A stretch of 54,173 nt of DNA, counting the filler, from Jimgerdemannia flammicorona (taxonomy: Eukaryota): the NCBI GenBank assembly GCA_003990765.1. It is 3 parts of 3 records of this genome, joined end to end, with 100 filler letters (N's around TTAATTAATTAA, not from the genome) between each part and the next. Parts side by side here need not be neighbours in the genome. Positions count along the whole stretch, not along the records: positions 36,187 to 54,173 come from RBNJ01002340.1; 2 more parts are not named here. The stretch is one strand, 5' to 3'. Each line of letters starts with the position of its first letter. Position 1 is the first letter of the stretch. The translations under genes were made by a program, and so were the position numbers. Of this stretch, positions 18,096 through 54,173 are shown piece after piece. Below the pieces are notes generated by a model. It saw only the letters and a list, made by a program, of their open reading frames with translations, did no database searches and was not told the DNA's origin.

Positions 18096-18278
18096 AAAAA
18101 AAAAAAAAGGACTTTGATTGAGACGTCAACCTGATCTTGAAATCAATAAGCATAGAGGACATACTCCATATGAAAATTAATCTTGACCATAAGAAAACAG
18201 TCTTCCAGAATATCCAGAACTTCCAGAAAATCCTTCCAGAACTATATAATGGTTACCCTAAAAAGCAACCCTCTTATA

Positions 18279-21596: not shown

Positions 21597-23090
21597 TGTA
21601 AGCACATAATCTCTAAGCTACCAAAATTGCATGGCATCCTCAGAACTAATTTGGAAACCACATGCGAGACTACAAAACAAGTTACTGAAGAGATCATCTG
21701 GTTACACGAAATACACCAGCAAGCATAAGAACCTACCACCAAGATATAAGAATACTAGAAGAAGTACTACAACCACAAGACTAACTCCAAACCACTATAA
21801 CTAGTTTGGTATACTGTATTATTACAAAAGAAAACTGAAAGTACCAAACTCAAATCAAGACAAGAAGAACTCTATCTCATCTACCAAAAGGTTTACGAAC
21901 TGTACTTATCAACTCAAGACCAAGATACACTGTGACTATATAAGACCTCATTACTTAGCAGAAGCAAAATGCATTTGAACAACTCTATTTGCTCTATCTG
22001 TATCACCTCTATTGGAGAGTGACAGATGCTTCATCTGAACTCAAAAAAGCCAACAACATCAAAACCAATCTCAAGCTATCCATGTGATAGATATTACTAC
22101 TAGAAATTGTCTCAGATTACAGAAAATATCATTTCCGAGAGGTTCAAATCCCCAGCTGTGACATTGGGAGCCCTTGCCCTAGATGAGAATAGCCAGTCCT
22201 CACAAATGTACCAGCAGACCAAAAAAAAAAGAGAACCAAGACCTGTTATCCTTGTACAACCACTGCCACCAAGGATAGCCTTAATCTTGCAAGAGATAGA
22301 AGTGACAATATCTTGAAACTGATGATGTCAGAAGTCAGAAAACTGCTCAGACTTTGCCAGCAATGATGTCATCAATAGTGATGTCATCAAAGACTAACCA
22401 GACAGCACCTAAACCTATAAATAGCTTAGCAGTCATAGTATAGTTAGATCAGCCTTGTACAATGTGACTGTAAACTAACTCAGCAGTCAGACGATCTCTT
22501 GACATATCAGATCACTCTTGTACTATGTGACTGTATTCTGATTCAGCAAGGCACTTAGTGCTACATCCATATCTAGTATAGTCCAGATAGCCCCTCACTA
22601 ATATAAATACCCCCTCCCCCAGACCTCAGAATCTCAGACCTGAACAATCCGAACACAACTCCTGAGTACTTCTCCACAATATCCCTTTACCTAACTATTT
22701 CTAGTATAGCAATATCATGAATAGTGAATAAACCTATTTAATAACCCACAAACCACTCTTAAGTAAACCCATCCCCTGTTAGATCCCACTCCTAACCCTG
22801 TCACGAATTTCCTAATTGGGTATTGTCTGCAGCAATATGCCAATTCAACTAAGCTAGTCTTAGTTTCTTGAACTTCCTGAAATATGGAAAATCCTGAATA
22901 TCCAGAACTAGTCCAAGAAAGGACTTTGATTGAGATATCAACCCGATCTTGAAATCAATAAGTATAGAGGACATACTCCATATGAAAATTGATCTTGACC
23001 ATAAGAAAATGGTCTTCCAGAACATCCAGAACTTTCAGAAAACTCTTTCAGAACTACATAATGGTTACCCTAAAAAGCAACCCTCTTACA
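21597..23090 (+). repeat. Shared LTR of the array (1494 bp, variant U3)
   Basis: TGTAAG...CTTACA, preceded by a PPT and followed by ACT-TGGTAGCAGTGG. Confidence 0.93.

Positions 23091-29666: not shown

Positions 29667-29668
<2 letters not shown>

Positions 29669-29760
<92 letters not shown>
29669..29760 (+). repeat. Poly(A) homopolymer (92 nt)
   Basis: Seen directly, ~230 bp beyond the TRF4 stop. Confidence 0.95.
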
Positions 29761-29761
<1 letters not shown>

Positions 29762-29991
29762 AGAAGATACTCAAAGACGGGTCCCTTGTCCGACCGAGAC
29801 CGCCTCGTTACATAGAGAGTGGCAAATTGGTTATATACAAGAGCAATGTTGATGATTAGGAAGGTAACGCGCGCAACAATGGGACGCACCCTAGCCGTAC
29901 GAACGAGAGCGCAACGTCGCCTTTCCTGAACGCGCAATGGTCCAGTCTCCAGTCTTCGATCCCTCCACCTAGATTGCCATAAAGCGTTCCT

Positions 29992-32932: not shown

Positions 32933-35900
32933 ATGAACACAATAGACCTGACACGGCTGCCAGCAAGCGTTCTTCGCAGCCTCGCTGACATCCAGCAGGA
33001 GCTCGAGGAGGGCGACATCACTCAGAAGGGCTACGACAAAAAACGCGCAAAGATCTTTGAGGGCTACCTTGCCGAACAACTCCCGACCCAACCGCAGAAT
33101 GGCGTTGACGTCCCACAAGTCGAGATCTCCGTGGAGCAACCGCAAACGTCGACGCTCAATGACGGCAAACGCTCGAATCCAAACTCGGGCCGCTCGTCGC
33201 CCCTCGCGGATGATTACGAACGGATCACACTACCATTGTCGCACTCCCGCGCTGCCTCCGATCGGGAATCGTTATTGTCCAAGCCGGAATCGCTCTACGC
33301 CGGCGAGGAGCCGCCGAGCAATACGCCCTCTCCCGCCCTGCGGGGCCAGGATTCTGCCACCGAAGAGGTCGAGCGCATCTACTTGCATACGCTGGAAAAA
33401 TCGGGGAGTGACGGTGAAGAGACGTCAAGGAAGCTGGTCAAGTCCGACGAGAATGAACCAGCAGACCGGAAGGGTCGGCCGGCGCTCCCCCCAACTATCA
33501 CCACAAAGGTTCACTCGCGATCAAGCTCCAAGTCCAGCATCAAAATGTCCATTCAGTCTCCTCCGCCCTCGGGCCCTTTGCCCGACATCCCAATCGCCTC
33601 TCCGACTCCATCTGCCTCGGTCTCGCCCACCCTTGCCGCCACAACACTGCCCCCCCAACCCCAGATCCTCGTCCGCCAATCCACAGCCGACTTCCAGCTC
33701 GAACCGCCCGCCGATGAGCAGCAGCAGAGGCAGGTCCCGCCGGGCAGGCCTGAGGCTGTGGTCGCGCAATCGCTCGCGCACGAGGTGATCGAGCGCGCGC
33801 TGAACAAGACGAGGAGTTCGACCGAGCTCAGGCACAAGGGCAGCGCCGACTCCCTCAAACGTGCCGTCGCCCAGAGAAACTCGAAGGAGCTCAGATCCAA
33901 AGGCAGCATCGAGTCCCTGAAACGACCCGCAGCCCACACCCGTCCCGTCGTCTCCGCCCTCCGCCTCGACACCACCACCGACCAATCCCTCCCTCCCATC
34001 GCCCACCCGTCCCCCCTCCTTCCTGAAAGCATGATGCTCCCGCACGCCAACCACTACGTAAATCACCCGCACGACCTGCCCCAACGCCCTCCTCCGCACC
34101 GCCCCCCAATGGCCATCTCCCATTACCAATCCCTCCCCGCCGTGCGGCCTCCCACACCAGGCGCCTCAGGCGGTCCCGTCCTTCTTCAACGTCCCCCACC
34201 AAGCCAATACCCACCAGGGGCCTACTACCGGCCCTCGAACCCGCACTACCACCCACAAGGTCCGCCCCCACCGCAGCAAGGACCTTCCCCGGGTGCATCA
34301 CATCGCCAATCCTATCATCCGTCGCCCAACCCCGGCATCCCCATCCAACCAGGATATAGCTACTCGGTACAGCGCCCCCCACCAGGTCCATACGCATACC
34401 GTCCACCCTCATCCCCAACCTCCGACATCCACCCACCCCACCTGCCCCGCCCGCCGGGGCCATCCAATTCGTACCCGCAACGCCCGGGCTACAACAACCA
34501 CGATGCCTCCATCTACCGCTTCTCGGCCGGCGGGCCATCACCCGCCGCGCCGGGGATTATGGCATCGCCAAGGCTGGGGCCGGTGCCGTCTAACGACTCG
34601 AGAGACGGGTTTAGGCAGAGCATATATATGTCGTATTCGCAGGGGCCTGGGTACCCCCCGGGACAGGCCGGGCACATGTTGGGTGCTGGGGGAGGGAGGA
34701 GGAAGAGTTTCGATTCGAACCCCGTCGGAGAGAGAGATGACCCGGCGGGGTTGGCCAGGGCGCAGACTATTAGGGGGGATTTGGTGCAGGGTGCGCAGAG
34801 GAAGGATTGGGGTGAGTACATGGGTGGTGGGTAGGTTAAAAGTTTGATGGTGTGTTTGGTGGTATTTGGGGTATTAAAGGTATTGTGCTTTCATACCTTT
34901 CACTAGACACCGGCTCCGTCAAGTCTCTCTCGTGGGGCGGTGGTCGCACTCGCTCCGGCTCTGTAGCTTCCTCGATCAACCCTCCGATCAGCATCCGTAG
35001 CGGCAGCATCCGCCGTCGGTCCGGCTACATGAGTGGCAGCTTCCGGACCGTCGAACCCGCCCAGATGCCGACCTTCCACCCCGACGACTTTGACCCACAA
35101 GAGCTCGCCGATCTCGCTGGCCTTCAAATGTTCCCTCTAGAACCGCGCGAGATTCCCTTCCGCGTCATGGACCCGAATGGGCACACAGAGATGTCCTCGT
35201 TTTCCAACATCGCCGCCATCATGCGTTACCGCGCCCTCAACACCCCGCGCAACCCGGCTTTTGCCATTTGCGACCCCAAGGGCAAGGAGCTCGCAAATTT
35301 GACGTGGGACAAGGTGAACGCGCGTGCAGAGAAGGTGGCCCACATCATCCGCGACAAGTCCGGGCTGGACCACGGCGGCCGCGTGGCGCTCATCTACCGT
35401 AAGTCGGAGATCCTGGACTTCGTCGCCGCCTTCTTCGGCTGCTTTCTAGCCGGCGTCGTCGCTGTCCCCATCAACGCTGCCGAGGAGATGGCAGAGCTTT
35501 CCTTCATCCTCAACTCCACCGGAGCCTGGCTCGCCCTTACAACCGACCACAACCTACGCGCCTTCACCCGCGACCTCGAGGCCCGTCGCGCCGAGTTCCC
35601 CCCAAACATTGAGTGGTGGAAAACAAACGAATTCGGATCCTGGTATCCGCAGCGGAAGGGTTCCACTGAGTACCCGCCCATCCTGGCCCCCGACCTCGCT
35701 TACGTCGAGTATTCCAAGGCGCCCAACGGCGAACTCAAGGGCGTCGCCATCTCGCATCGTACTATTATGGCACAGTGTACAGCTTACAAGGGCGCGGTAA
35801 CGCCGCCGTCGGATAGGCCCTCGTCGTCGCAGTTCTCTCCTGGGCTCAAGGACGTAGCGACGCAGGGCGGAGTGGGACCCTTGGCGAATGCGCAGAGTTA

Positions 35901-36067
35901 TAACCATTCATCGGATGTCGTTGTCTCGTATATTGAACCTAGGCAGCAGGTTGGATTAATTCTCGGGGTGCTGTGTGGAGTGTTTTGTGGGAACTTTACG
36001 GTGTTCGTGAGTTCGAGTGTGATGGATACGCCGGCTGTGTGGGTCAACTTGTTGACGAGATATCGAG
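32933..36067 (+). CDS. DIP2: DIP2/Cps1/Cmr2-family protein (DMAP1-binding domain plus FAAL-like AMP-binding domain), 5' partial; exons 32933-34811 and 34907-36067
   Basis: ELEEGDITQKGYDKKR (DMAP1-binding), PLEPREIPF, LTWDKVNARAEKVA, IEWWKTNEFGSW, LAYVEYSKAPNGELKGVAISH. Phase-1 GT-AG intron. Next donor at 36068 runs into the contig end. Confidence 0.93.
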
Positions 36068-36086
36068 GTGAGGTTTTTTTTTTTTT

Positions 36087-36186
36087 NNNNNNNNNNNNNN
36101 NNNNNNNNNNNNNNNNNNNNNNNNNNNNNNTTAATTAATTAANNNNNNNNNNNNNNNNNNNNNNNNNNNNNNNNNNNNNNNNNNNN
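36087..36186. other. Artificial contig linker
   Basis: N44-TTAATTAATTAA-N44. Confidence 0.98.
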
Positions 36187-37988
36187 GGGAGCTCGAGATG
36201 CTTCATGCTTGGGTTCTTCTTTCTTGGTCCAAGTCTTTTCCTTGTTGTTGAATTGCCTTTGGGGCAGAATTGGTCCAGCTGTTAGGATTTGCTTGACCAT
36301 GGTCTTGATTCTTACCAGGCACCATTGTTGGTGATCACAACCAACTGGACAGTCTTGTTCTCAGATTTTTCTAGTAAGCCATTCAGGCAGTGCATCGAAT
36401 AAATGGTCTGCTCTTGTGCCATTTCATGCTTCATCGTTGGCAATATATCCTAGGCCGACAGTGTTCAGGAGTGACTCGAGTTTTGTACAGAAGGTTTCAA
36501 ATTCTTCTTTGCCATGTACATCAAATTTGAGGTTGCAGAGTTTTACTCGAGATTCGGCAATCATTGTTTCGCTGCGATATTGAGCAATCATGAGTTGTTT
36601 GAGTCCAGGGGCTGCAGGATGGGCTCCATATCCTGGGGCATTGTTTGCTGCATTCTGGGCAACTACTGCAGGTTGGGTATCCCATGTGAGGGGTTTTTCA
36701 GGAAGGGTTCACCACCATTCTTTGGCAGGTCCTCGGAAGAATGTAACAACTCGGTAGACATAGGCTGTAGTTGTAGCAAAGAGTTGTTCCAGAGTGTGGT
36801 CTTGATTATTTGTCAGAACACGGTCAGCGACTCATTCATTGGTCCATTGATTGGCTTCAAAGTTGGTGTCAACTATACTAATGAAGCTTTGGACCTCTTG
36901 TGCAGTGTCATTGAAGGTAGGTAGGCTCAGATTTTTGGTAGGTTGGGTCTGTTCGGCTATGGCAGTAATAGTTGCTGCCATTATAGCTACTTGGACTGTG
37001 AGGTCTAGAATCTGTTGGTTCGCCATGTTGATTGCTGGAGGCGGTTGGACTGCTGGTAGTGGTGTTACTGGTACTACTTGAGGTACTGGTGCAGAGTGTG
37101 ATGGGGTTCTTTGGGTCTGTGTAAGTTGCTGGAGTAGTAGTTGTGGATCTGGAGTGAGGGCTTGATAGATAGCTGTTTGTTGCTGTGTAGGTGTATTCTG
37201 TCCTGATGGATGTGTGTCTCCTTCAGTGGTATATCCAGGATCGAATTCGGTGAGATACTCCTCCTCTTCTTTGGTTTGGTCCCCGTGTAATTGGGTTTGC
37301 TCGGTGTCAAAGTACACAGAATCAGTTGTATATCTGATTTCAGATGGACTTAATTCAAAGTCAAGTTCAGGTTTGGTATTGGTTTCAGATTCAGGTAGGG
37401 TTGTAGTAGGGTCTGGTTCAGGTTCGGAGTCAGGTAGTTGATGAAGGATTTCTCTTGCTTCTTCTTTAAGGATATAGCAGGCCTTGCTGTTCTGGAATCA
37501 GTAGTATAAGGCAGTCTTGGTCCTGGTACAGTAATAGTTGGTAGAGTTGAGCCACTTGGCTACAGAGGCTTGGGCTTCGTGAGGAACTAAGGCTAGAAAG
37601 ACAGCTGCTGGTTGTCCTAGGTCGCTCGGATTTGTGGAGCTGACAAAACTCTTATTGAGAAGAGTAAAGAAGACTTCAATAAGACCTTCTTCATCTTGAC
37701 TTGCTGGGTGTAGTGCAAGGAGTTCGGTGAATAGAGTTTCGCCTATTTGCTGGTTTAACTTGAGTACTTCTTTCTTTGAATGAAGTTTATCCCACTTGTT
37801 GCAGGTGTGGAGGTCAAATTGTCCTTGTACGTCAGGTTCAATTCTCTCCAGATTGTCAGATGGTTCAGGATAAATTCCAGTTCAGAGGTTGGACTTTATA
37901 CCAACTTGTAGGAATTCACAGAAGGGTTTGTAGCAGGGTGAGGAAGTGTCTTGAAGCAGAATTGAATTGTAAACCACTACTACCAAGT

Positions 37989-40046
37989 TGTAAGAGGGTT
38001 ACTTTTTAGGGTAACTGTTATGTAGTTCTCAAAGGGTTTTCTGGAAGTTCTGGATATTCTGGAAGACTATTTTCTTATGGTCAAGATCAATTTCGTATGG
38101 AGTACATCCTCTATGCTTATTGATTTCAAGATCGGGTTGACGTCTCAACCAAAGTCCCTTTTTGGACCAGTTCTGGATGTTCAGGATTTTCCGTATTTCA
38201 GGATTTTCCGTATTTCAGGAAGTTCAAGAAACTAAGACCAGCTTAGTTGAATTGGCATATCGCTGCAGACAATACCCAATTAGGAAATTTCATGATGGGG
38301 TTAGGAGTAAGACCTAACAGAGAGCCGATTTACTTAAGAGTGGTTTGTGGGTTATGGAATAGGTTTATTTGCTATTTATGATATTGCTATACTAGAAGTA
38401 TTTGTGTGAAGGGGTATTGTGGGGAAGTGCTCAGGAGTTGTGTTCGGATTGTTCAAATCTTTCAAGTCTGAGATTCTGAGGTCTGGGGGAGGGGGTATTT
38501 ATACTAGTGAGGGGCTATCTGGACTATGCTAGATATGGATATAGCACTAAGTGCCTTGCTGAGTCGGAATGCAGTCACATAGTACAAGTGTGATCTGACA
38601 TGTCAAGAGATTGTCTGGCTGCTGAGTCAGTTCACAGTTACATTATACAAGGCTAATCTATCTATACTATGACTGCTAGGCTATTTATAGGTTTAGGCAC
38701 TATCTGGGTAGTCTTCGATGACATCACCATCGATTGCATCATCTCTGATGAAGTATTCATCTAGGAAGAGTGGTTCGCAGATAACTTCTCCTTGTTGGCT
38801 GAGATAGTAATACATTGGGACTTCATCTCCATCTCACAGGATAGCATCGTCTGTTTCATATGCTGGATAAGGTGTTGGTGGGCAAAGGATGGGTGTATTG
38901 TCTTCACTTTCATCAGATTCGCTGTCTGCATACCTTCTATAAGTTACAGTACTATGAGTCGCGGGGTTGTAGTAAGCTGACGGCTGTGGTTCAAGTTGCT
39001 CGTACTCAGGTGGTGGGGTTGTTGGTTCGATCTCTAGGGTTGTTTGGAGGTACAGGTTGTGTTCTCCGGTCTCTTCATTATAGTTGAAGTAGTCAGGGGT
39101 GAACGCAGGTTGGTATTCGTGCCAGTGGTCATTGTCCCAATAAGTCTCGTATGTAGTTATGAACTGTTGTAAGTTCATTGGCAAGGTTGACAGAGTGATC
39201 AGGGTTGGCAGAGATCCTTGGCTAGAGGTCATGTCAGTGTCAGAGGGATCATTGTCTTCTACTTCATCTTCGTCGAAGTGAATTATATCGTAGACGTCCT
39301 TCATGGCGTATCTGACTTGAGGCATTTGCAGGATATGGTCATCAGGGTGCGGGAAGGTTCTGTCTGTGGTCTGGACGTATTCGAGGTACTTGTGGTTGAG
39401 TTCTTGTATCATGTCATCGATTTGGCCGTAGGACAGAGTAGCAACCATTTCACTGGTAGTGACTCGGAGACGGGGAATAAAGGTGTTGTACTCATAGAAG
39501 AGTTCTCGATGTTTGCGGGCGATGAGCTTCTGGTGTTGAGACATCTGGGTAATGTCTGTATCATGGTGGTATTCGACCATGTCTTCTAAGAGGTGGCCAA
39601 TCTGGTAGTAGCTTGAGATTTGTCCTATTCGGTGGGCCTCGCTAAGCATGTTCAGGGCATTCCATCGGGCTTCCACGAAGTAGAGGGGTGCCAGACTATG
39701 GATATTCATGAGGGGCAGAGGGGGTGTGGCTCGGTTGACAATGGCATTCCAAATGTCAGTGCGGATGCAGTTGTAAATCTCAGTGGTCATGTTTGTGTGT
39801 TTGGAAGTTGTGGTTGTTGTTTGTTTTGGTTCTCTGATTTGACGTGTCTCGGTGCTCAGTATATATGCATTTGGTCCTGATTGGTAAGGTTCCATTTGTG
39901 TAGATCTTGTGTTCCGTGACTTCGTATTGACTCAGCTTTGTGTGCTGTGACTTCGGTTTGACTCAGCTTCATGATCAAGCAGGTGATTTCCAGATTTGTT
40001 CAGAGGTTGCATGTATTTTTGGTGGCTTGGAGGTTGTGCGCTTACA
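37989..40046 (-). repeat. Family B full LTR (2058 bp), 5' LTR of B1
   Basis: TGTAAG...CTTACA followed by the PBS. Colinear with 47431-49473. Confidence 0.95.
38693..39895 (-). CDS. LTR(U3)-encoded accessory ORF, 400 codons, unknown function (one TGG>TGA stop at codon 354)
   Basis: 353-aa open frame, and the last 46 codons match the open frame of the 53218 copy. Confidence 0.8.
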
Positions 40047-41204
40047 TTATAACAGTATACAAGACTTATTGGAACAATGACCACTGGCATGAATACCAAC
40101 CTGCATTTACTCCCGACTACTTCAACTACAATGAAGAGACCGGAGAACACAACCTGTACCTCCAGACAATCCTCGATATTGAACCAACCACTCCACCACC
40201 TGAGTACAAGCGACATGAACCACAGCCACCAGCTTACTACAATTCTGCAACTCATAGTGCTATAACCTATAGAAGGTACACAGACAGTGAATCCGATGAA
40301 AGCGAAAACAATACACCCCTCCTTTGCCCACCAATACCTTATCCAGTGTACGAGACAGACGATGCTATCCTATGGGATAGAGATGAAGTTCCAATATATT
40401 ATTACCTCAGCGAACAAGGAGAAGTAATCTGTAAGCCATTATTTCTAGACAACTACTTCATCAGAGATGATGCAATCGATAGTGATGTCATCAAAGACTA
40501 CCCAGATAGCACCTAAACCCATAAATAGCCTAGCAGTCATAATATAGTTAGATTAGCCTTGTACGACATAACTGTGAACTGACTCAGCAGTCAGACGATC
40601 TCTTGATATGTCAGATCACACTTGTACTATGTGACTGCATTCCGACTCAGCAAGGCACTTAGTGCTACATCCATATTTAGCATAGTCCAGATAGCCCCTC
40701 ACTAGTATAAATATCCCCTCCCCCAGACCTCAGAATCTCAGACTTGAACAGACTCGAACACACAAGAACATTCCTGAATACTTCTCCACAATACCCCTTC
40801 ACACAAATACTTCTAGTATAATAATATTATGAATAGCAAATAAACCTATTTGATAACCCACAAACCACTCTTAAGTAAATCTGCTCCCTATTAGGTCCTA
40901 CTCCTAACCCTGTCATGAAATTTCCTAATTGGGTATTGTCTGCAGTGATACACCAATTCAACTAAGCTGGTCTTAGTTTCTTGAACTTCCTGAAATACGG
41001 AAAATCCTAAACATCCAGAACTAGTCCAAAAAAAAGAACTTTGGTTGAGACATCAACCTAATCTTGCAATCAATAAGCGTAGAGGACATACTCCATATGA
41101 AATTGATCTTGACCATAAGAAAACAGTCTTCCAGAACATCCAGAATATCTAGAAAACCTTTCTAGAACTATGTAATGGTTACCTTAAAAAGCAACCCTCT
41201 TACA
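40047..41204 (+). repeat. B2 5' LTR, distal 1158 bp (cut by B1)
   Basis: Colinear with 48316-49473 and begins inside the U3 ORF. Confidence 0.93.
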
Positions 41205-43230
41205 ACTTGGTAGCAGCGGTTTACAATCCAATTCCGCTTCAAGACACTTCCTCACCCCACTACAAACCCCTCTGCAAATTCCTATAAGTTGGTATAAAGC
41301 CCAACCTCTGAACTGGAATTTATCTGAACCATCTGACAATCTGGAGAGAATTGAACCTGATGTACAAGGACAATTTGACCTCCACATCTGCAACAAGTGG
41401 GATAAACTTCATTTAAAGAAAGAAGTACTCAAGTTAAACCAGCAAATAGGCAAAACCCTATTCACCGAACTCCTTGCACTATACCCAGCAAGTCAAGACG
41501 AAGAAGGTCTTATTGAAGCCTTCTTTACTCTTCTCAACAAGAGTTTTGTCAGCTCTACAAATCCGAGCAATCTAGGATAACCAGCAGCAGTCTTTCTAGC
41601 CTTAGTTCCTCACGAAGCCCAAGCCTCTGTAGCCAAGTGGCTCAACTCTACCAACTTTTACTGCACCAGGACCAAGACTGCCTTATACTACTGATTCCAG
41701 AACAGCAAGGCCCACCATATCCTTAAGGAAGAAGCAAGAGAAACCCTTCACCAACTATCTGATCCCGAACCTGAAGCAGGCCCTGCTACAGCCCTACCTG
41801 AATCTGAAACCAATACCGAACCTGAACTTGACTTTGAATTAAGTCCATCTGAAATCAGATATACAACTGATTCTGTCTAATTTGACGCTGAGCAAACCCA
41901 ATTACACGGGGACCAAACCGAAGAAGAGGAGGAGTATCTCACCGAATTCGATCCCGGATATACCACTGAAGGAGACACATGTCCATCAGGACAGAATATA
42001 CCTACACAGCAACAAACAGCTATCTATCAAGCCCTCACTCCAGATCCACAACTACTACTCCAGCAACTTACACAGACCCAAAGAACCCCATCACACTCTG
42101 CACCAGTACCTCAAGTAATACCAGTAACACCACTACCAGCAGTCCAACTACCTCCAGCAATCAACATAGCGAACCAACAGATTCTTGATCTCACAGCCCA
42201 AGTAGCTATAATGGCAGCAACTATCACTGCCTTAGCTGAACAGACCTGACCTACCAAAAATCTGAGCCTACCTATCTTCAATGGCACTATATAAGAAGTC
42301 CAAAGCTTCATTAGTGTAGTTGACACCAACTTCGAAGCCAATCAATGGACTAATGAGCGAGTTGCTGATCGTGTTCTGACAAACAATCAAGACCACACCC
42401 TGGAACAACTCTTTGCTACCACTACAGCCTATGTCCACCAAGTTGTTACATTCTTCCAAGGACCTGCCGAAGAATGGTGGCGAACCCTTCCTGAAAAACT
42501 CCTCACATGGGATACCCGACCTACAGTAGTTGCCCAGAATGCAGCAAACAATGCCCCAGGATATGGAGCCCATCCTGCAGCCCCTGGACTCAAACAACTC
42601 ATGATTGCTCAATACTGCAGTGAAACCATAATTGCTGAATCTCGAGTAAAATTCTGTAATCTCAAATTTGATGTATATGGCAAAGAAGAATTTGAAACCT
42701 TCTGTACAAAACTCGAGTCACTCCTGAACACTGTTGGCCTAGGATATATCACCAATGATGAAGCACAAAATGGTACAAGAGCAGACCATTTATTTGATGC
42801 ACTACCTGAATGGCTTACTAGAAAAATCTAAGAACAAGGCTGCCCAGTTGGTTGTGATCACCAACAATAGTGCCTGGCAAGAATCAAGACTATGGTCAAG
42901 CAAATCCTAACAGCCGGACCAATTCTGTCCCGAAGACAATTCAACAACAAGGAAAAGACTTGGACCAAGAAAGAAGAACCTAAGCATGAAGCATCCTGAG
43001 CTCCCTTCACATCCACCTCTTGGACACCCAGAAATCCTGAACCCACCCAGCCCAGTACCTTCAAGAAACTTACTGAAGATGAAAGGAATGAACTTCGAAG
43101 AAGTAGAGCATGCTTCTATTGCCGAAAGACAGGACACATGGCCAGTGCCTGCCCTAACCGAAAGCCCCAAGCAGCAACATGAGCAACTGTCACCACTCTG
43201 CACCACCTCAACAACCTGACCACCAGAATA
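41205..43230 (+). pseudogene. gag: B2 gag with long N-terminal extension and zinc knuckle
   Basis: LSLPIFNG, FFQGPAEEWW, CFYCRKTGHMASAC at 43111-43152. Scattered transition-type stops. Confidence 0.88.
41208..41219 (+). promoter_or_regulatory. PBS, probably initiator tRNA-Met type
   Basis: TGGTAGCAGCGG 3 nt after the LTR CA; resembles the iMet PBS TGGTAGCAGAG. Confidence 0.65.
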
Positions 43231-43236
43231 CTAGAC

Positions 43237-43636
43237 TTTGTCAAGTTAAGACAAACTGCTAAGGCCCCAACCAAAGAAAGTCAAAAAGCAGCCAGATATG
43301 ACCTGTATGCAGCTGAAGAAGCTACAGTCTCCAACTGAGAAGTCAAACAAGTCTACACAGGAATCAGTATCCCAATCCCTGAAGGACATGTTGGAAGAAT
43401 ATGCTGTCGCAGCAGCCTAGTACTGAAAGGACTCTCAGTAGAAGGAGGAGTCATTGACAAAGATTACACAGGCGAAATCATTGTCCTCATTCGAAACCAC
43501 AGTTGGACACCCTTCAAGATCCCTATTGGTTTCTGCATTGCCCAGATCATATTCGAAAAAATTGAGTCAACCCTGACAGTCAAGGAAGTCCCTGAACTAC
43601 TGCCCACCATCCGAGGATCCAAAGGATTTGGCTCAT
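43237..43636 (+). pseudogene. dut: B2 dUTPase, in frame between zinc knuckle and protease
   Basis: AARYDL (AAGYDL in unit 2), CRSSL, GGVIDKDYTGEI, IAQII, RGSKGFGSS. Confidence 0.92.
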
Positions 43637-43849
43637 CAAACAAGGCCCCAGCCCAACCTATCATGAGTAAAGAAGAACAATTCTATAAGAAGATCGAAGA
43701 TGGATATGTACCAAGTGGCTGATGCCCTCAGGTATTGGAATGTACTCTTCCTGAATGATTGATGATTACTTCTCTTGTGTCAATGAACTGGCTCAAAGAA
43801 GAACCAATAGAAGGAAAGCTACTACAATGGAAATTACCACAATTGGATC

Positions 43850-46800
43850 AGACAAACTGCTCACCCTTAAGGCTTTTGTCAATGGAGCACCTGTTAAGAT
43901 TATGATAGACAGTGGTGCCTCAGGCAACTTCATCAATGAAGAGACAGCCAACAGACTCAAGGTCTTCACCTCCCCAGTACAGCAAACTCAAGCAGTTGCT
44001 ACAGCTGATGGAACATCACATGTTATTAGCAAAGAAGTCCACAATCTATCTTTCCAAATTGGCGATTACCGAGTACATGTTACCCTCCAAATCATACCAC
44101 TTCCTGACAATGAAATTATCCTTGGGACTCTATGGTTAAAACAAGAGAACCCTATGATTGATTGGGTAAACCATTCTCTGACCATCAAGAAAGGACGCCA
44201 CAACTTCAAACTACAAGGTGAAAAGGACCCACTCAACTCTAGGGACCCTGGACCAAAGATCACCCACATCAATAAGCTACAACTTAAGAAATTAGCCAAG
44301 AAATGCCCTCTCTTCGCCATCTCCATCCAACCATCCAAAGGAGAACCCGAGAACCCTGAAGAGGATTTTTCCAAAGCCGACAGCCATGTCAGACCACTAC
44401 TCCAGAAATTCTGAGACATATTCCCAAAGAAGCTCCCGAAAGGCCTACCTCCCAAACGAGCAGTAGACCATGCAATCAAGACTATCCCAGATACCAAACC
44501 AGCCTTCAAGTCAATCTACCACATGTCTCTGAGAGAAATTGATGTACTCAAGAAAGAAATTGATGAACTCCTAGAACAAGGATTCATCAGACCTAGCGTA
44601 TCACCCTATGGTACACCAGTCCTCTTTGTTGTCAAGAAAGGAGGAGACCTATGAATGTGCATTGACTACCACAATCTCAATGAACAGACCATCAAAAACT
44701 GTTGCCCACTACCAAGGATTGATGAAATATTCAATAGACTTACCAACCCACAATTCATGAGCTCTTTTGACCTGCAAAATGGTTACTGGCAAATTTCCAT
44801 GAAAGAAGAAGACATCTACAAGACAGCTTTTCAAACTCGCTATGGACACTTCGAGTTCCTGGTTATACCCTTTGGCTTAACTAATGCTCCAGCAACCTTC
44901 CAGACACTGATGAATACCATTCTGCATCCATACCTGGACAAATTCGTTGTTGTCTATATTGATGACATCCTAGTCTTCAGCAAAACCCTGGAGGAACATC
45001 TTGAACACCTTGAACTAGTACTACTGAAACTCTGAGAAAACCAACTCTTTGCAAAACTCAGCAAGTGCGAATTTCTTTTGAAAGAAATTCAATTCCTTGG
45101 ACACATTATCACTCTAAATGGAATTAAAGTGGACCCCAGCAAAATCTCTGTGATCAAAGATTGGCCCATACCCAAGAAGCTGAAAGACCTTCAGTCATTC
45201 CTGGGATTAGCAAATTATTACAGGCGATTTGTTACCAACTTTGCTAAAATCGCTACTGCCCTCACCCAAATGACCAAGCATAGCAAGAAACAAGAACAGC
45301 CCTGGACCATGAAATAAGAGAAAGACTTCAACAATCTTGTAAATTGGGGATACAAGCAAGATACCACCTTTCAAGCACTGAAGGATGCCTTGATAACCAC
45401 TCCAGTACTTCAAGCAGCAAACTCTGCCCTACCATATGAAGTTACTACTGATGCCTCTGACCTAGCTCTTGGAGCAGTGCTCGTGCAAGAAGGACACCCT
45501 GTGGCCTATCACTCCCACAAGTTCAATGATGCCGAAATCAACTACACAACTCACGAGAAGGAAATGCTAGCCATCGTAGACACTCTGATCAAATGGCGAC
45601 CATACCTAGATAGAGCACACTTCACAGTATTGACTGACTACAAGTCATTAGTCAACATCAAGACACAGGCTACCCTTTCTCGAAAGCAAGCCAGATGGAT
45701 GAAAGTCCTCACCAACTTTGACTATGAAATCCTATACCACCCTGGCAAGGAAAATATTATTGCTGATACAATTTCCAGACCACCAATTGAAGAGGTTATC
45801 CAAACTCTGATCTTGGTTACCAACACTATCATGGAACAAATCATTGCAGCATGTGTTGATAATAAAGAAGCTCAAGCACTCTGAGAAATCTTGAACAGTG
45901 ATGATGCTAACAAGTATACCCAGTATAACCAATACCAACTCAAGGACAATACTATCTACTACAAGGACAGACTGTATGTTCTGAACAACTGAGATCTCAG
46001 AAGGACTATCCTATTCGAATGTCATGATGCCCCTACAGCTGGATATTTAGGATTTGATAAATACTATAAAGTTATCTTCCAAAACTTCTATTGGCCCCAT
46101 ATAGCAGATCAGCTCAAAACCTACATCACTTCCTGTGATGCCTGCCAATGAAACAAGTCCTCAACACTAGCAAAACCTGGCTTACTCCACTCTATCCCAG
46201 TACTATCCACAACTTGGGAACAAATCTCTATGGACTTCATTATACAACTACCCCGAACCAAGAATGGGAAAGATGCAATTGTTGTCTTTGTGGACTATCT
46301 CAGCAAACAAGCCCACTTTGTGCCTACTACCACTACTGCAACAGCACCAGATATAGTCACACTCTTGTTTGACAACATCTTCTGCTATCATGGTCTTCCT
46401 AAGATCATTGTTAGTGACCGAGATCCGAAATACACCAGCCACTTTTGGAAAGCCCTCCATACACACCTTGGAACAAAACTTGCACTATCCACAACCTTTC
46501 ACCCAGAAACTGATGGCCAAACTGAAAGAATGAACCGAACTCTGGAACAAATGCTAAGGAACTATGTTTCCTACAGAAAGATGATTGGCATGAACACCTC
46601 ACCGCAGTTGAGTTTGCCTACAACAATAGCAAACAAGTCTCTCTTGGAATGACCTCATTCTTCACCAATACTGGACAAAATCCAAACACCCCTTTGACGC
46701 TTATCCAAACTACTGATGAATCCTCCACAGTTGAAGCTGTTGAAGAATTCCTACTTCGAATGCGCAATCTAAGCTAGATTGCAATTGAGAATTTATCACA

Positions 46801-47290
46801 AGCTCAAGAACAACAGTCACAGTATATTAACCAATACCGCCAAACCTTTGATATTGGAGAAAAAGTTCTACTGGACATCAGAGGATACTGAGTTGACAAC
46901 CTCAAGTACAGACCATCTACTAAGCTGAACAGCAAGTTCATTGGACCATTTGAAGTCATCGCACAAGTCTCTCCAACCTCCTACAAACTGGCACTACCAG
47001 ACACCATTAAGATTCACCCAGTCTTTAATGTTCAACATCTCAAGCAATATAATGAGAATGATGATGAGCTATTTCCAAACTGGACCACCAAACCACCTGC
47101 ACCTGTCATTATTAATGACCAAGAAGAGTATGAAGTTGAACAAATCCTCAATAAATGTGGCAACAAGAACCATCCCGAGTACCTTGTCAAATGGAAAGGT
47201 TACCTGATCCATGATGCAACCTGGGAACCCAAGACCAATCTCCAGAATACTACTGACCTAGTTCAGGAATATGATTTCTTGAACAACTAG
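43850..47290 (+). pseudogene. pol: B2 pol: protease, RT, RNase H, integrase, chromodomain
   Basis: [58 protein letters not shown], then EEYEVEQIL...YLVKWKGY...ATWEP (47123-47290). A 1-nt loss near 46576 relative to B3. Confidence 0.96.
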
Positions 47291-47416
47291 AACCAAATAT
47301 TCCACACCTATCCATATATACTATATATTATCCTTCCGAACATTATAATTATTACAAACCAAACCAAGAACTCAGCAGAACAAAATTAGAAGGCCCCAAC
47401 GAGGATGTCAAAAGCT

Positions 47417-47429
47417 AAGAAGAGGAGAG
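47417..47429 (+). promoter_or_regulatory. Polypurine tract
   Basis: AAGAAGAGGAGAG one base before the 3' LTR TGTAAG. Confidence 0.9.
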
Positions 47430-47430
47430 T

Positions 47431-49473
47431 TGTAAGCACACAACCTCCAAGCCACCGAAATTACATGTCACCCTCTGAACAAATCTGGAAATCACCTGCT
47501 TAATCATGAAGCTGAGTCAAACTGAAGTCACAGCACACAAAGTTGAGTCAAAATGAAGTCACAGAACACAAGAATTATACAAATGGAATCTTACCAATCA
47601 GGACCAAATGCATATATACCGAGCACCGAGATGCGTCAAATCAGAGAACCAAAACAAACAATAACTACAACTTCCAAATATACAAACATGACCACTGAGA
47701 TCTACAACCATATCCGCACTGACATTTAGAATGCCATTGTCAACCAAGCTACACCCCCTCTGCCCCTCATGAATATCCATAGCCTAGCACCCCTCTACTT
47801 CGTAGAAGCCCAATGGAACACTCTGAACATGCTTAGCAAGGCCCACCGAATCAAACAAATCTCAAGCTACTACTAGATCGGCCACCTCCTGGAAGACATG
47901 GTTGAATATCACCATGATACAGACATTACCCAGATGTCTCAACACCAGAAGCTCATCGCCCACAAACATCGAAAACTCTTCTATGAGTATAGCACTATTA
48001 TTTCCTGCCTCCGAGTTACTACCAGTGAAATGGTTGCTACCCTATCCTATGGTCAAATCAACGACATGATACAAGAACTCAACTACAAGTACCTCGAGTA
48101 CATCGAAACTACAGACAGAACCTTCCCATACCCCAATGATCATATCCTGCAAATGCCCTAAGTTAGATATGCCATGAAGGATATCTATGATATAATCTAC
48201 TTCGATGAAGATAAAGCAGAAGACAATGATCCCTCTGATGCTGACATGACCTCTAGCCAAGGATCTCTGCCAACCCTGATCACTCCACCAATCTTGCCAA
48301 TGAACTTACAACAGTTCATAACAGCATACGAGACTTATTGGGACAATGACCACTGGTACAAATACTAACCTGCATTCACCCCTGACTACTTCAACTATAA
48401 TGAAGAGACTGGAGAACACAACCTGTACCTCCAGACAACCCTCGAGATTGAACCAACCACTCCACCACCTGAGTACGAGCGACATGAACCATAGCTGCCA
48501 GCTTACTACAATCCTGCAACTCATAGTGCTGTAACCTATAGAAGGTACGCAGACAGTGAATCCGATGAAAGTGAAAACAATACACCCCTCCTTCGCCCAC
48601 CAATACCTTATCCAGTGTACAAGACAGATGATGCTATCCTGTGGGATGGAGATGAAGTTCCAATGTATTATTACCTCAGTGAACAAGGAGAAGTAATCCG
48701 CGAACCATTATTCCTAGACGACTACTTCATCAGAGATGATGCAATCAATGGTGATGTCATCAAAGACTACCCAGATAGCGCCTAAACCCATAAATAGCCT
48801 AGCAGTCATAATATAGTTAGATTAGCCTTGTACGACGTGACTGTGAACTAACTCAGCAGTCAGACGATCTCTTGACATATCAGATCACACTTGTACTACA
48901 TGACTGCATTCTGACTTAGTAAGGCACTTAGTGCTACATCCATATTTAGCATAGTCCAGATAGCCCCTCACTAGTATAAATACCCCCTCCCCCAGACCTC
49001 AGAATCTCAGACTTGAACAGACTCGAACACACAAGAACATTCCTGAATACTTCCCCATAATACCCCTTTATATAAATACTCCTAGTATAACAATATTATG
49101 AATAGCGAATAAACCTATTTGATAACCCACAAACTACTCTTAAGTAAATCTGCTCCCTGTTAGGTCCTAATACTAACCCCATTACGAAATTTCCTAATTG
49201 GGTATTGTCTGCAGCAATACACCAATTCAACTAAGCTGGTCTTAGTTTCTTGAACTTCCTGAAATATGGAAAATCCTAAAAATCCAGAACTAGTCCGAAA
49301 AAAAGGACTTTGGTTGAGATGTCAACCTAATCTTGCAATCAATAAGTATAGAGGACGTACTCCATACAAAATTGATCTTGACCATAAGAAAATGGTCTTC
49401 CAGAACATCCAGAATATCCAGAAAACCTTTCTAGAACTACGTAATGGTTACCTTAAAAAGTAACCCTCTTACA
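47431..49473 (+). repeat. B2 3' LTR (2043 bp)
   Basis: TGTAAG...CTTACA, TATAAATA at ~48975, AATAAA at ~49108. Confidence 0.95.
47583..48785 (+). pseudogene. U3 accessory ORF in the B2 3' LTR (several stops)
   Basis: Same 1203-nt ATG-to-TAA span as 38693-39895. Confidence 0.85.
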
Positions 49474-52400
49474 CATAGGACAGGGTAGCAATCATTTTGA
49501 CTGTGGTAACTCAGAGATAGAGAATAATAGTGCTATACTTGTAGAAGAGTTCTCAATGTTTGCAAGCAATGAGCTTCTGGTATTGAGATATCTGGGTAAT
49601 GTCTGTATTGTGGTAGTATTCAACCATGTCTTCCAGGAGACAGCCAATCTGATAGTAGCTTGAGATTTGTCCAATCTGGTGGGCCTCATTAAGTATGTTC
49701 AGGGCATTCCATCGGGCTTCCATGAAGTAAAGGAGTACTAGGCTATGGATATTCATGAGGAGTAGAGGGGGTGTGACTCGGTTGACAATGGTATTCCAAA
49801 TGTCAGCACAGATGTGGTTGTAGATCTCAGTGGTCATGTTTGGATATATTCAGAAGTTATAGTTGTTGTTTGTTTTGGTTCTCTGTTCGACATGTCTCGG
49901 TACTCAGTATATATACATTTGGTCCTGATTGGTAAGATTCTGTTTATGTGAATCTTGTATTCTGTGACTTTGTTTTGACTCAGCTTCATGATCAAGCAGG
50001 TGATTTCTAGATTTGTTCAGAGGTCACATGTGATTTCAGTGGCTTTGTTCAGAGGGTGATGTGTGATTTCAGTGGCTTAGAGGTTATGTGCTTACAACTC
50101 TCCCCTTCTTAGCTTTTGATATCCTCGTCGGGGCTTTCTAATTTTGTTCTTAGTGTTGTTACACTGTTTGAGAGGTCAAAAGTCTAGTAAAGTCCATTTT
50201 TCTCAGAAAGTGGCATGCTCATAGTACAGTTGTCTAATGCATTGGATTCACACATTAAAGAGTTGTGTGTTCAATGCCATGCACCGGAAGTAATTCTGAT
50301 GTTATTCACTGCTGGAGAATTTCCTCTAAGGAATTTTCTTAAATATCTATACCTTGTTTCCCACCAGTGGTATGAGGAGAATAGGCTGGCTTTCAGTTTT
50401 GCTATTTTTCCAGAGGGTTGGTATTCTTGTCTTATTTTGCTGAGTTCTTGATTTTTGATAATTATAGTATTCAGGAGAATAATATATAATATGTATGGAT
50501 GGTATCAGAGTATTCAGATTTCAGTTGTTTAAGGAATCATATTCCTGAACTATATCAGTAGCATTCTAGAGATTGGTCTTGGGTTCCCAGGTTGCATCAT
50601 AGATTAGGTAACCTTTCCATTTGACAAGGTACTCTGGGTGGTTTTTGTGGCCACATTTGTTGAAGATTTATTCAACTTTGTATTCTTCTTGGTTATTAAT
50701 AATGATAGGTGCAGGTGGTTTGGTGGTCCAGTTTGGAAATAGCTCATTATCATTCTCATTATATTGCTTGAGATATTGGACATTAAAGACTAGGTAAATC
50801 TTAATGGTATCTGGTAGTACCAGTTTGTAGGAGGTAGGAGAGACTTGTATGATGACTTCAAATGGTCCAATGAACTTGCTGTTTAGCTTTATAGATGGTC
50901 TGTGTTTGAGGTTGTCAACTCGGTATCCTCAGATGTCTAGTAGAACTTTTTCTCCAATGTCAAAGGTTTCTTCTCGGTGGTGTTGGTTAACATACTGTAA
51001 CTGTTTTTCTTGAGCTTGCAATAAGTTCTCAATTGCGATCTGGCTTAGATTGCACATTCAGAGTAGAAATTCTTCAACAGCTTTGACTGTAGAGAGTTCA
51101 TCAGTAGTTCAGATAAGTGTCAGAGGAGTGTTTGGGTTTTGTTCAGTATTGGCAAAGAATGGGGTCATTCCAAGAGAGGCTTGTTTGCTGTTGTTATAGG
51201 CAAACTCAACTGCAGTGAGGTGTTCATGCCAATCATCTTGTCTGTAGGAAATATAGTTCTGTAGCATTTATTCCAGAGTTTGGTTCATTCTTTCAGTTTG
51301 GCCATCAGTTTCAGGGTGAAAGGCTGTGGATAGTGCAAGTTTTGTTCCAAGGTGCACATGGAGGGCTTTCCAAAAATGGCTGGTAAATTTCAGGTCTCAG
51401 TCACTAACAATGATCTTAGGAAGACCATGATAGCAGAAGATGTTGTCGAACAATAGTGTGGCTATGTCTGGTGCTGTTGTATTTATAGTAGTTGGTACAA
51501 AGTGGGCTTGTTTGCTGAGATAGTCTACAAAGACAACAATTGTATCTTTTCTGTTCTTGGTTTGGGGTAGTTGTATAATGAAGTCTATAGAGATTTGTTC
51601 CCAATTAGCAGATAGTACTAGAATAGGGTGGAGTAGGCCAGGTTTTACTAGTGTTGAGGACTTATTCTATTGGCAGGCATCACAGGAAGTGATGTAGGTC
51701 TTGAGCTGATCTGCTATGTGGGACCAATAGAAGTTTCAGGAGATAACTTCATAACATTTATCAAATCCTAAATATCCAACTATAGGGGCATCATAACATT
51801 CGAATAGGATAGTCCTTCAGAGGTCTCGGTTGTTTGGGACATACAGTCTGTCCTTGTAGTAAATAGCATTGTCCTTTAGTTGGTATTGATGATACTGTGT
51901 ATGCTTGTTGGCATCATCACTGTTCAGGATTTCTCGGAGTACTTGAGCTTCTTTATCATCAGCACATGCTGTGATAATTTGTTCCATGATAGAGTTGGTA
52001 ACCAGAGTGAGAGTTCGGATAACTTCTTCGATTGGTGGTCTTGAGATTACATCAGCAATAATATTCTCCTTGCCAGGGTGGTACTGGATTTTATAGTCAA
52101 AGTTGGTGAGGACTTTCATCCATCTGGCTTACTTTCGAGAAAGGGTAGCCTATGTCTTGATGTTGACTAATGACTTGTAGTTAGTCAATACAGTGAAGTG
52201 TGCTTCTTCTAGGTATGGTCGCCATTTGATCAGGGTGTCTATGATGGCTAGCATTTTCTTCTTGTAGGTTGCATAGTTGATTTCTATATCATTGAACTTG
52301 TGGGAATGATAGGCCACAGGGTATTCTTCTTACATGAGTACTGCTCCAAGGGCTAGGTCAGAGGCATCAGTAGTAACTTTATATGGCAGTGCAGGGTTTG

Positions 52401-52539: not shown

Positions 52540-54173
52540 TGTAAGAGGGTTGCTTTTTTAGGGTAACCGTTATGTAGTTCTGGAAAGGTTTTCTGGATAT
52601 TCTGGATGTTCTGGAAGACCATTTTCTTAAGGTCAAGATCAATTTCGTATGGAGTACATCCTCTATGCTTATTGATTTCAAGATCAGGTTGACTTCTCAA
52701 CCAAAGTCCTTTTCCGGACTAGTTCTGGATGTTCAGGATTTTCCATATTTTAGGAAGTTCAAGAAACTAAGACTAGCTTAGTTGAATTGGCATATCGCTG
52801 CAGACAATACCCAATTAGGAAATTTCGTGACGGGGTTAGGAGTGGGACCTAACAGGGAGCAGATTTACTTAAGAGTGGTTTGTAGGTTATGGAATAGGTT
52901 TATTTGCTATTCATGATATTGCTATACTAGGAGTATTGTGTGAAGGAGTATTGTGGGGAAGTATTCAGGAGTTGTGTTCGGATTGTTCAAGTCTGAGATT
53001 CTGAGGTCTGGGGGAGGGGGTATTTATACTAGTGATGGGCTATCTGGACTATGCTAGATATGGATGTAGCACTAAGTGCTTTGCTGAGTCGGAATGCAGT
53101 CATATAGTACAAGTGTGATCTGACATGTCAAGAGATCGTCTGACTACTGAGTCAGTTCACAGTCACATTGTACAAGGCTAATCTAACTATATTATGACTG
53201 CTAGGCTATTTATGGGTTTAGACACTATCTGAGTAATCTTCGATGATATCACCATCGATTGCATCATCTCTGATGAAGTAGTTATCTAGGAAGAGTGGTT
53301 CGCGGATTACTTCTCCTTGTTGGCTGAGGTAGTAATACATTGGGACTTCATCTCCATCCCACAGGATAGCATCATCTGTCTCATAGGCTGGATAGGGTGT
53401 TGGTGGGCGAAGGATGGGTGTATTGTCTTCGCTTTCATCCAATTCACTATCTGCATACCTTCTATAGGTTACAGCACTATGAGTTGCAGGATTGTAGTAA
53501 GCTGATGGCTGTGGTTCATGTTGCTCGTACTCAGGTGGTGGAGTGGTTGGTTCAATCTCGAGGGTTGTCTGGAGATACAGGTTGTGTTCTCCGGTCTCTT
53601 CATTGTAGTTAAAGTAGTCGGGGGTGAACATGGGTTGGTATTCATGCCAGTGGTCATTGTCCCAATAAGTCTCATATGCAGTTATGAACTGTTGCAAGTT
53701 CATCAGCAAGTTTGGCGGTATGATCAGGGTTGGCAGAGATCCTTGGCTAGAGGTCATGTCAGCATCAGAGGGATCATTGTCTTCTGCTTCATCTTCATCA
53801 AAGTAGATTATATCGTAGACATCCTTCATGGCGTATCCAACTTGAGGCATTTGCAGGATATGGTCATCAGAGTGCGGGAAGGTTCTGTCTGTGGTCTGGA
53901 TGTATTCGAGGTACTTGTGGTTGAGTTCTTGTATTATGTCATCAATTTGGCCGTAGGACAGGGTAGCAACCATTTTGCTGGTAGTGATTCGGAGGCGGAG
54001 AATAAAGGTGTTGTACTCATAGAAGAGTTCTCGATGTTTGCAGGCGATGAGCTTCTGGTGTTGAGACATCTGGGTAATGTCTGTATCATGGTGGTGTTCG
54101 ACCATGTCTTCCAGGAGGCAGCCAATCTGGTAGTAGCTTGAGATTTGTCTGATTCGGTGGGCCTCACTAAGTA
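52540..54173 (-). mobile_element. Family B copy B4: 3' or solo LTR (partial), inserted in B3 pol
   Basis: LTR end CTTACA at 52540 is followed by B3 RT/RH sequence, not a PBS. Confidence 0.92.
53218..54173 (-). CDS. U3 accessory ORF in the B4 LTR, open to the native stop (5' end off window)
   Basis: 295-aa ORF equals residues 106-400 of the B1 ORF. Confidence 0.82.
   Translation of the reverse strand, partial: LSEAHRIRQISSYYQIGCLLEDMVEHHHDTDITQMSQHQKLIACKHRELFYEYNTFILRLRITTSKMVATLSYGQIDDIIQELNHKYLEYIQTTDRTFPHSDDHILQMPQVGYAMKDVYDIIYFDEDEAEDNDPSDADMTSSQGSLPTLIIPPNLLMNLQQFITAYETYWDNDHWHEYQPMFTPDYFNYNEETGEHNLYLQTTLEIEPTTPPPEYEQHEPQPSAYYNPATHSAVTYRRYADSELDESEDNTPILRPPTPYPAYETDDAILWDGDEVPMYYYLSQQGEVIREPLFLDNYFIRDDAIDGDIIEDYSDSV

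Follow-up and report, generated by a model that had tools for sequence, protein, structure and literature searches.

The long terminal repeats (LTRs) of retrotransposons are regarded as control regions without coding function; they are masked by annotation pipelines and taken to drift neutrally in LTR-based age estimates. To our knowledge, protein genes are almost never found inside LTRs. We analyzed a stretch of 54,173 nt from Jimgerdemannia flammicorona (assembly GCA_003990765.1; the window), in which the LTR of a chromovirus carries an open reading frame (ORF) of 400 codons. The question raised by this locus is whether the ORF is a gene that belongs to the element. A sequence-only reading had proposed an accessory gene in the U3 region. 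Our comparisons indicate, with a probability of about 0.7, that the ORF is a real, selected, element-borne accessory gene in U3.

The ORF lies in the sense direction at positions 152-1354 of the LTR and is 1203 nt long. The TATA box (TATAAATA) is located at 48975-48982 (+), 189 nt past the ORF stop, and the presumed poly(A) signal AATAAA at 49108-49113 (+). Since both are downstream of the ORF, the ORF must be in U3 as judged from position. Thus, the proposed start about 150 nt into the LTR, the end about 190 nt before the TATA box and the length of 1203 nt agree with our measurements. The ORF-bearing LTR (B type) is 2043-2058 nt long and has the ends TGTAAG...CTTACA. Its 5′ end, TGTAAGC, is found at 47431, one base after the purine run AAGAAGAGGAGAG. 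Its 3′ end, CTCTTACA, is found at 49473 in the 3′ LTR of the element copy B2 and at 41204 in the 5′ LTR of the same copy. In the 5′ copies, the LTR end is followed by ACT-TGGTAGCAGCGG, which corresponds to the primer-binding site (PBS). In B1, a PBS follows the 5′ LTR; in B2, a polypurine tract (PPT) precedes the 3′ LTR. The ORF lies wholly inside a true LTR, as had been claimed.

The comparison of the window with itself and the Pfam search revealed nested copies of a single chromovirus family, whose domains are arranged in the order gag, dUTPase, protease, reverse transcriptase (RT), RNase H, integrase, and SH3 plus chromodomain. In the carrier, Pfam matches were obtained for gag-asp_proteas (E = 1.4e-14), RVT_1 (5.6e-26), RT_RNaseH (1e-31), rve (4.8e-09) and Chromo (5.9e-16), and the dUTPase (3.8e-25) is placed before the protease. 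The order protease-RT-RNase H-integrase, the C-terminal chromodomain, and the LTRs with PBS and PPT are those of a chromovirus. When the window was searched by tblastn with the B1 protein, the ORF was found in five places only (B1, B2 5′, B2 3′, B3 and B4). It is present in all five B-type LTR copies, including a 5′ LTR before a PBS and a 3′ LTR after a PPT, and absent from both complete LTRs of a related type (A type). Thus, the expectation that every autonomous-type LTR has a piece of the ORF was confirmed, and the ORF belongs to the element family and not to one copy.

The coordinates are given in Table 1. The B1 ORF is on the minus strand, which had been left unstated for 38693-39895, and has a single internal stop (TGA at codon 354), as predicted. 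Four of the stops in the B2 ORF are at glutamine codons of B1 and correspond to C>T changes. The B4 copy was described as stop-free over 295 codons. It is indeed open, and the open length is 317 codons. Furthermore, its label as a 5′ LTR has to be changed: the CA end of B4 (52540) abuts pol sequence and not a PBS, which makes B4 a 3′ or solo LTR. For the same reason, the idea that B4 and B3 form a single internally deleted element was ruled out.

Table 1. Positions of the element parts and ORF copies, counted along the whole window
Feature	Position	Strand	Remark
ORF copy B1	38693..39895	-	400 codons; ATG at 39895, terminal stop 38693-38695
ORF copy B2 3′	47583..48785	+	400 codons; 5 internal stops
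ORF copy B2 5′ piece	40046-40513	+	last 155 codons, stop-free
ORF copy B3	49475-49940	-	N-terminal 156 codons, frameshifts, without ATG; 69.5% identity (tblastn)
ORF copy B4	53221..54171	-	codons 84-400 (317) open; cut by the window edge
B-type-specific U3 module	47500..48735	+	absent from the A-type LTR
B1 5′ LTR	37989..40046	-	2058 nt, TGTAAGC...CTCTTACA; then PBS, then gag
B1 PBS	37974..37985	-	TGGTAGTAGTGG; 3 nt past the LTR end
B1 gag	leftwards from PBS to 36187, start of N run	-	
B2 5′ LTR, partial	40044..41204	+	LTR position 881 to end
B2 PBS	41208..41219	+	TGGTAGCAGCGG
B2 internal region	41205..47430	+	interrupted by stops and 1-nt deletions
B2 gag	within 41205..47430	+	without Pfam match
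B2 dUTPase	43339-43719	+	Pfam
B2 protease	43755-44411	+	Pfam
B2 RT	44655-45032	+	Pfam
B2 RNase H	45318-45881	+	Pfam
B2 integrase	46152-46649	+	Pfam
B2 SH3 + chromodomain	46892-47287	+	Pfam
Polypurine tract	47417..47429	+	AAGAAGAGGAGAG; one base 5′ of the B2 3′ LTR
B2 3′ LTR, full	47431..49473	+	2043 nt
B3 3′ LTR fragment	49474..50150	-	more divergent, about 82% identical
B4 LTR, 3′ or solo	54171->52540	-	CA end at 52540
A-type LTR	21597..23090	+	1494 nt; second copy 26482-27976

To decide whether the frame is a gene, selection was analyzed in the five copies, all of them decayed, and in a single fragment from outside the window. In the B1 LTR, the frame stays free of stops over at most 365 codons. 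The first explanation to be considered is that no gene exists: the A/C-rich, T/G-poor strand would give a long frame by itself, and context-dependent C>T decay in a small sample would mimic constraint. Stops are indeed rare in this composition, and in 1000 first-order Markov simulations the mean longest frame reached 103 codons. However, the simulated maximum was only 222. Insertions and deletions point in the same direction. Among B1, B2 3′, B2 5′ and B4, none was detected in the ORF, whereas six events were detected in the approximately 700 nt of LTR after the ORF. For the same copies, there are no gaps in 2157 aligned nt of the ORF and seven in 7324 nt of gag-pol. Moreover, the GC contents at codon positions 1/2/3 show a periodicity in the ORF (.53/.36/.50) and in gag-pol (.52/.36/.41), which is not observed in the LTR after the ORF (.41/.40/.38).

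The substitutions were then considered. The differences at codon positions 1/2/3 number 77/33/122 in the ORF and 223/150/346 in gag-pol. The approximately 10% divergence between the copies is mostly post-insertion decay, and this decay consists mostly of C>T and G>A changes at CpA and CpG. Such decay is uneven over codon positions, and the LTR pair of a single element also spares codon position 2 (20/3/18), as the explanation without a gene would have it. The private changes in the ORF comprise 82 synonymous changes, 93 non-synonymous changes and 8 stops. In a trinucleotide-context-matched null, 62.8 +/- 5.6 synonymous changes were obtained, and 82 was reached in 0/2000 shuffles. When the private changes were read in the two shifted frames, only 48 and 42 were synonymous. 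The ratio of non-synonymous to synonymous substitution rates (dN/dS) between elements was calculated by the Nei-Gojobori method. The in-frame values were 0.16-0.28 for the ORF and 0.23-0.32 for gag-pol of these copies; the corresponding out-of-frame values were 0.58-1.55 and 0.58-0.89. Thus, dN/dS of the ORF is not near 1, and the ORF bears the marks of purifying selection on a protein-coding sequence.

The outside fragment, P0001 (247 aa, encoded by a metagenome contig of 998 nt), is 68-70% identical to the ORF protein over the C-terminal 200-250 residues. The alignment has two gaps, both in frame, and the frame of P0001 is open to the same C-terminus. When neutral change to 68% identity was simulated without insertions and deletions, 4-6 stops appeared on average and only 0-2% of 300 runs stayed open. 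These results, together with the context-matched null and the shifted frames, make the explanation without a gene very unlikely. The combined coding evidence, all of it drawn from sequence, makes it decidedly probable that the ORF represents a genuine gene of this element family.

A real coding sequence might still be a passenger, that is, a fragment captured in U3 from a host gene or from another mobile element, which does no service to the element and whose frame is a leftover. The A-type elements bear on this explanation. They form a tandem array at 18101-27976 (LTR-internal-LTR-internal-LTR), which is a non-autonomous derivative. Their internal part contains gag, dUTPase and protease, breaks off at the equivalent of 44422 and resumes in the PPT region. 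The A-type and B-type LTRs have only positions 1-69 and 1306-end in common. The middle 697 nt of the A-type LTR are unrelated to the B type, and their longest open frame is <=79 codons. The B-type-specific module begins 84 nt before the ATG and covers the ORF except for the last 16 codons. It contains two tandem repeats of about 30 nt, each with TGAGTCA (47513-47519 and 47544-47550), 30-70 nt before the ATG. We take TGAGTCA to be the consensus site of AP-1/Gcn4-type factors. These repeats are also found in B1, and one copy is found in B3, whereas none is found in the A-type LTR. Thus, the ORF-bearing module and the upstream repeats were exchanged as one unit relative to the A-type LTR.

This modularity, with an unrelated 697-nt segment at the same place in the A type, is what the capture of a passenger would leave, as is the run of the last 16 codons into LTR sequence common to the ORF-less type. 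Capture of foreign ORFs downstream of pol is known in LTR retrotransposons, as far as the available parts of two reports go (PMC6431247, PMC7264820). However, the ORF has no relative outside the element copies in libraries that stand for about 15 billion proteins. Its relative synonymous codon usage correlates with that of gag-pol (r = 0.77) and not with that of the neighboring GC-rich host genes (r = 0.14). Since codon usage and composition resemble those of gag-pol and differ from those of host genes, a recent capture from the host is argued against. Furthermore, the frame has been retained in a lineage that is only 68-70% identical, and the in-frame constraint equals that of gag-pol. We therefore consider a passenger unlikely and continue with a gene that serves the element.

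The encoded protein was then characterized. The whole protein has a pI of 4.3, a net charge of -48 and a grand average of hydropathy (GRAVY) of -0.72. The C-terminal half is very acidic, as had been noted: residues 181-400 have a net charge of -44, with 49 D+E against 5 K+R, 29 Y/F/W and 23 prolines. Acidic residues with interspersed bulky hydrophobic ones are the composition of acidic activators, a resemblance in composition only. The maximum Kyte-Doolittle mean over 19 residues is 0.86. Thus, the protein has no hydrophobic segment, and an Env-like signal peptide or transmembrane segment was not seen at this hydropathy. In comparison with P0001, conservation is highest (0.72-0.76) at residues 252-353 and lowest (0.40) at residues 200-224, the most acidic stretch. 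Residues 246-285 do not vary among the four sequences that were aligned. Structure prediction suggests four long helices at about residues 31-176 and little regular structure after them.

The protein is an orphan as judged from the searches made. No Pfam family was matched at E<=0.01 or at E<=10, and a profile search of the PDB sequences at E<=10 gave 0 matches. The Foldseek search of the PDB with the model of residues 30-185 gave only generic helical bundles (best E 0.66), which were discarded, and the best score in the ESM Atlas, 0.78, was under the usable range. An exhaustive HMMER scan of 1.84 billion cluster representatives gave three matches, two of which are genuine: P0001 and P0002 (128 aa, 93% identical to the ORF protein). 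The third, P0003 (E = 1.3e-06), was rejected because it is a six-fold repeat protein that matches only one helix of 38 aa. A word-index search gave one match among 553 candidates of the near length class and one among 20 of the shorter class. In scans of Joint Genome Institute (JGI) metagenome contigs and viral contigs, no DNA of relatives was found. Thus, neither a described domain nor a host-gene relative of the protein was found in Pfam, in the PDB, in the AlphaFold2-Foldseek comparison or in the protein libraries. A PPxY motif (PPPEY, residue 295) was considered as a ligand of WW domains. Since P0001 has TPLSEY at this position, the idea was dropped.

Several observations weigh against an accessory gene in U3. 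Every copy that can be judged as a whole is broken: B1 has one stop, B2 has five, and B3 is frame-shifted and without ATG. The strong transition bias pushes dN/dS low, and the paired LTRs of B2, which are expected to be neutral, gave, on the basis of no more than 38 differences, dN/dS of 0.37 (frame 0) and 0.36 (frame 1). Accordingly, the ratio of the ORF lies about two-fold, rather than five-fold, below neutrality. P0001 entails an ascertainment bias, since its open frame is what brought it into a protein database. The ORF had been thought to be better preserved than gag-pol. This was not upheld, since stop-creating changes account for 10/172 single-difference codons in the ORF and 28/570 in gag-pol. 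The ORF decays at the rate of gag-pol, and therefore nothing suggests selection at the host level at present. The A-type elements multiplied without the ORF; thus, the ORF is not needed in cis. As for the protein, only two true relatives, both partial, were found in libraries of the size given above. The helical N-terminal part is slightly acidic (pI 5.85) and no DNA-binding domain was seen in it, and AlphaFold2 was unconfident (pLDDT, its per-residue confidence score, 32.4 for 353 aa and 50.1 for residues 30-185). Finally, a transcript, a start site or a splice junction was not seen in the assembled contigs, the only material of this kind examined. A link between the leader and the ORF was found in none of the 11 joints listed for contigs of four runs on 40600-48850; these contigs are assembled and so give no starts, ends or levels, and the uneven depth in two small runs, putatively of RNA, allows no reading. 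Among 20 sequencing runs listed as sharing sequence words (at best 0.30 of them), which come from soil metagenomes and two coded organisms, no RNA run was listed.

How such an accessory gene would be expressed can be considered from the layout. The ORF lies about 290 nt after the pol stop, in a frame different from that of pol, and by its position would be the last cistron of the genomic RNA. As the last cistron in another frame, it would need its own mRNA. One candidate is a 3′-coterminal mRNA with its start within the first ~150 nt of the LTR and its end at the AATAAA of the LTR; the other is a spliced subgenomic mRNA. The TGAGTCA repeats, which belong to the same swapped module as the ORF, lie in the candidate start region of the former. 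With such a transcript, the LTR would be a complete gene unit. That the LTR is a self-contained gene, with a promoter in its first ~150 nt (the paired TGAGTCA) and an mRNA ending at its own poly(A) signal, is a tentative proposal. Because the ORF follows the PPT, both LTRs receive the gene during reverse transcription. Therefore, a full element has two copies of the gene, and any solo LTR would keep it.

The product, if used, would act in trans, because the non-autonomous A-type elements multiplied without the ORF. A role as transactivator or anti-silencing factor had been put forward. This role may be inferred from composition, namely the net charge of -48 and the acidic, aromatic tail. The likeness of the acidic and aromatic half to activation or histone-binding regions is confined to composition. 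Since the helical part is not basic, an adaptor, co-activator or anti-silencing factor is preferred to a DNA-binding transactivator. In the function that we favor, the tail of an adaptor would bind basic partners in the transcription or chromatin machinery of the host and so favor the expression of the element. This assignment to a co-activator or anti-silencing factor, based on composition, is a doubtful one, although we prefer it to the others.

The opposite function was also considered. The ORF may be a real gene for a self-limiting factor, the dose of which rises with the number of LTRs, including solo LTRs, and which may bind the basic surfaces of Gag or integrase. Ty1 p22, which controls copy number, is the model for such a factor. 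The placement in the LTR, which doubles the gene per element and preserves it in solo LTRs, would suit this function. The strongly acidic tail could bind basic nucleic-acid-binding proteins, and the ORF is dispensable in cis, both of which are also in line with it. However, p22-like restraint finds no sequence link to Gag here, as hhalign against the two gag pieces of the element gave probabilities of 1.6% and 0.1%. In addition, element-level selection would be harder to maintain for self-restraint than for self-promotion. We thus regard self-restraint as improbable, though still in contention, and the element-promoting adaptor is retained as the working proposal.

Some features of the copies were recorded beside the ORF. 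At 41323, 43730 and 46577, some or most of the covering contigs from other samples have an extra base. Thus, part of the breakage of the B2 gag-pol is due to private 1-nt deletions. CATAG is the 3′ flank of two independent LTR ends, those of B2 (49474-49478) and B4 (52535-52539). B2 and B4 are nested insertions within other copies of their own family, and the shared CATAG may reflect a target preference or chance. The window has four runs of 44 N (17996-18039, 18052-18095, 36087-36130 and 36143-36186), which form two identical pairs with 12 bases between the runs of a pair. The pair at 17996-18095 is at the left of the A-type array, and that at 36087-36186 divides a GC-rich gene block (29000-36086) from the nest of B1-B4. 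Since the truncations of the A-type array at 18101 and of B1 at 36187 coincide with N runs, they may not be biological.

The window contains other elements and genes. A second Ty3/gypsy family with dUTPase is present at 1-6465 (-) and 10781-15173; Pfam recognizes its integrase zinc finger, RNase H, RT and dUTPase. Upstream of the dUTPase, a single frame covers about 950 codons and gave no Pfam match. A second copy is 67-69% identical and has a GC content of 27%, compared with 45%. It is hypermutated in a manner resembling repeat-induced point mutation: of the 710 differences, 478 are G>A or C>T, and these lie mostly at CpA. Two genes of host type are GC-rich (55-62%). The gene at 30668-32042 (-) encodes a Cid1/TUTase-like nucleotidyltransferase (MTPAP-like_central and PAP_assoc), and that at 32855-36084 (+) combines a DMAP1-binding domain with a downstream AMP-binding domain, presumably in the manner of DIP2/CPS1. 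With the DMAP-binding ORF as query, neither the ESM Atlas nor a search for longer proteins gave a match.

A selected U3 gene of 400 codons would have several consequences. Part of the LTR would be under coding constraint, which biases LTR-based dating, and solo LTRs could stay protein-coding. Retrotransposons could then evolve retrovirus-like accessory genes at the position of sag of mouse mammary tumor virus (MMTV). If expressed, the orphan protein would be a handle on the dealings between chromovirus and host in transcription, silencing or copy-number control. If the LTR is in addition a self-contained gene, both LTRs and solo LTRs would express a family-specific acidic regulator, the dose of which tracks the number of LTRs. 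In that case, elements would have a novel means of sensing or boosting their own copy number, and retroviral U3 accessory genes would have their first counterpart in a retrotransposon.

Finally, the ORF was compared with known systems. By position, the closest analogue is MMTV sag, which is unrelated to it by sequence and by protein type. Like the ORF, sag is a sense frame of several hundred codons that lies within U3, entirely past the PPT. Both LTRs therefore contain it, and reverse transcription itself can do without it. In contrast, there is no sequence relation between the two (nothing in Pfam at E<=10), and Sag is a membrane glycoprotein whereas the ORF protein is without a membrane anchor (maximum 19-residue hydropathy as given above). 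The carriers also differ, being an env-less chromovirus here and a vertebrate retrovirus in MMTV. The genes nef (human and simian immunodeficiency viruses) and bel/bet (foamy viruses) are 3′-end accessory genes that reach into U3. They differ from the ORF in that they merely overlap U3, belong to complex retroviruses that express them from spliced mRNAs, and have no sequence relation to it. In the full-text literature searched, MMTV sag was the only protein ORF inside an LTR, beside foamy-virus microRNAs. Within the limits of that collection, no LTR retrotransposon with a protein ORF inside the LTR was found.

According to the available part of one review (PMC7264820), additional ORFs (aORFs) of LTR retrotransposons occur in either orientation, sense or antisense, and for the most part lie between pol and the 3′ LTR. 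The aORF-3S described there resemble the ORF in that they are sense, lie after pol, occur family-wide, have no similar host gene and have no assigned function. Here, the ORF is family-wide (5/5 B-type copies and two metagenomic relatives), and only P0001 and P0002 resemble it in the protein libraries, so that no similar gene outside elements was found. The aORF-3S differ, as far as that text goes, in lying in the internal region upstream of the PPT, whereas the ORF lies after the PPT and also in the 5′ LTR. Several of them are env-like with transmembrane segments, which the ORF lacks, and the same portion of text contains no instance of an ORF within an LTR. It also describes brtn of Boty (BcGypsy1) in Botrytis cinerea, an extra gene of unassigned function in a fungal Ty3/gypsy element, like the ORF here, which differs in being antisense and internal. 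An 'add. ORF' is drawn for fungal chromoviruses in another report (PMC2864245), the available text of which leaves its position unspecified; this too is an extra gene in fungal Ty3/gypsy elements. Thus, the theme of additional ORFs is known, and the placement of one inside U3 of a retrotransposon LTR, as read from this window, appears to be new.

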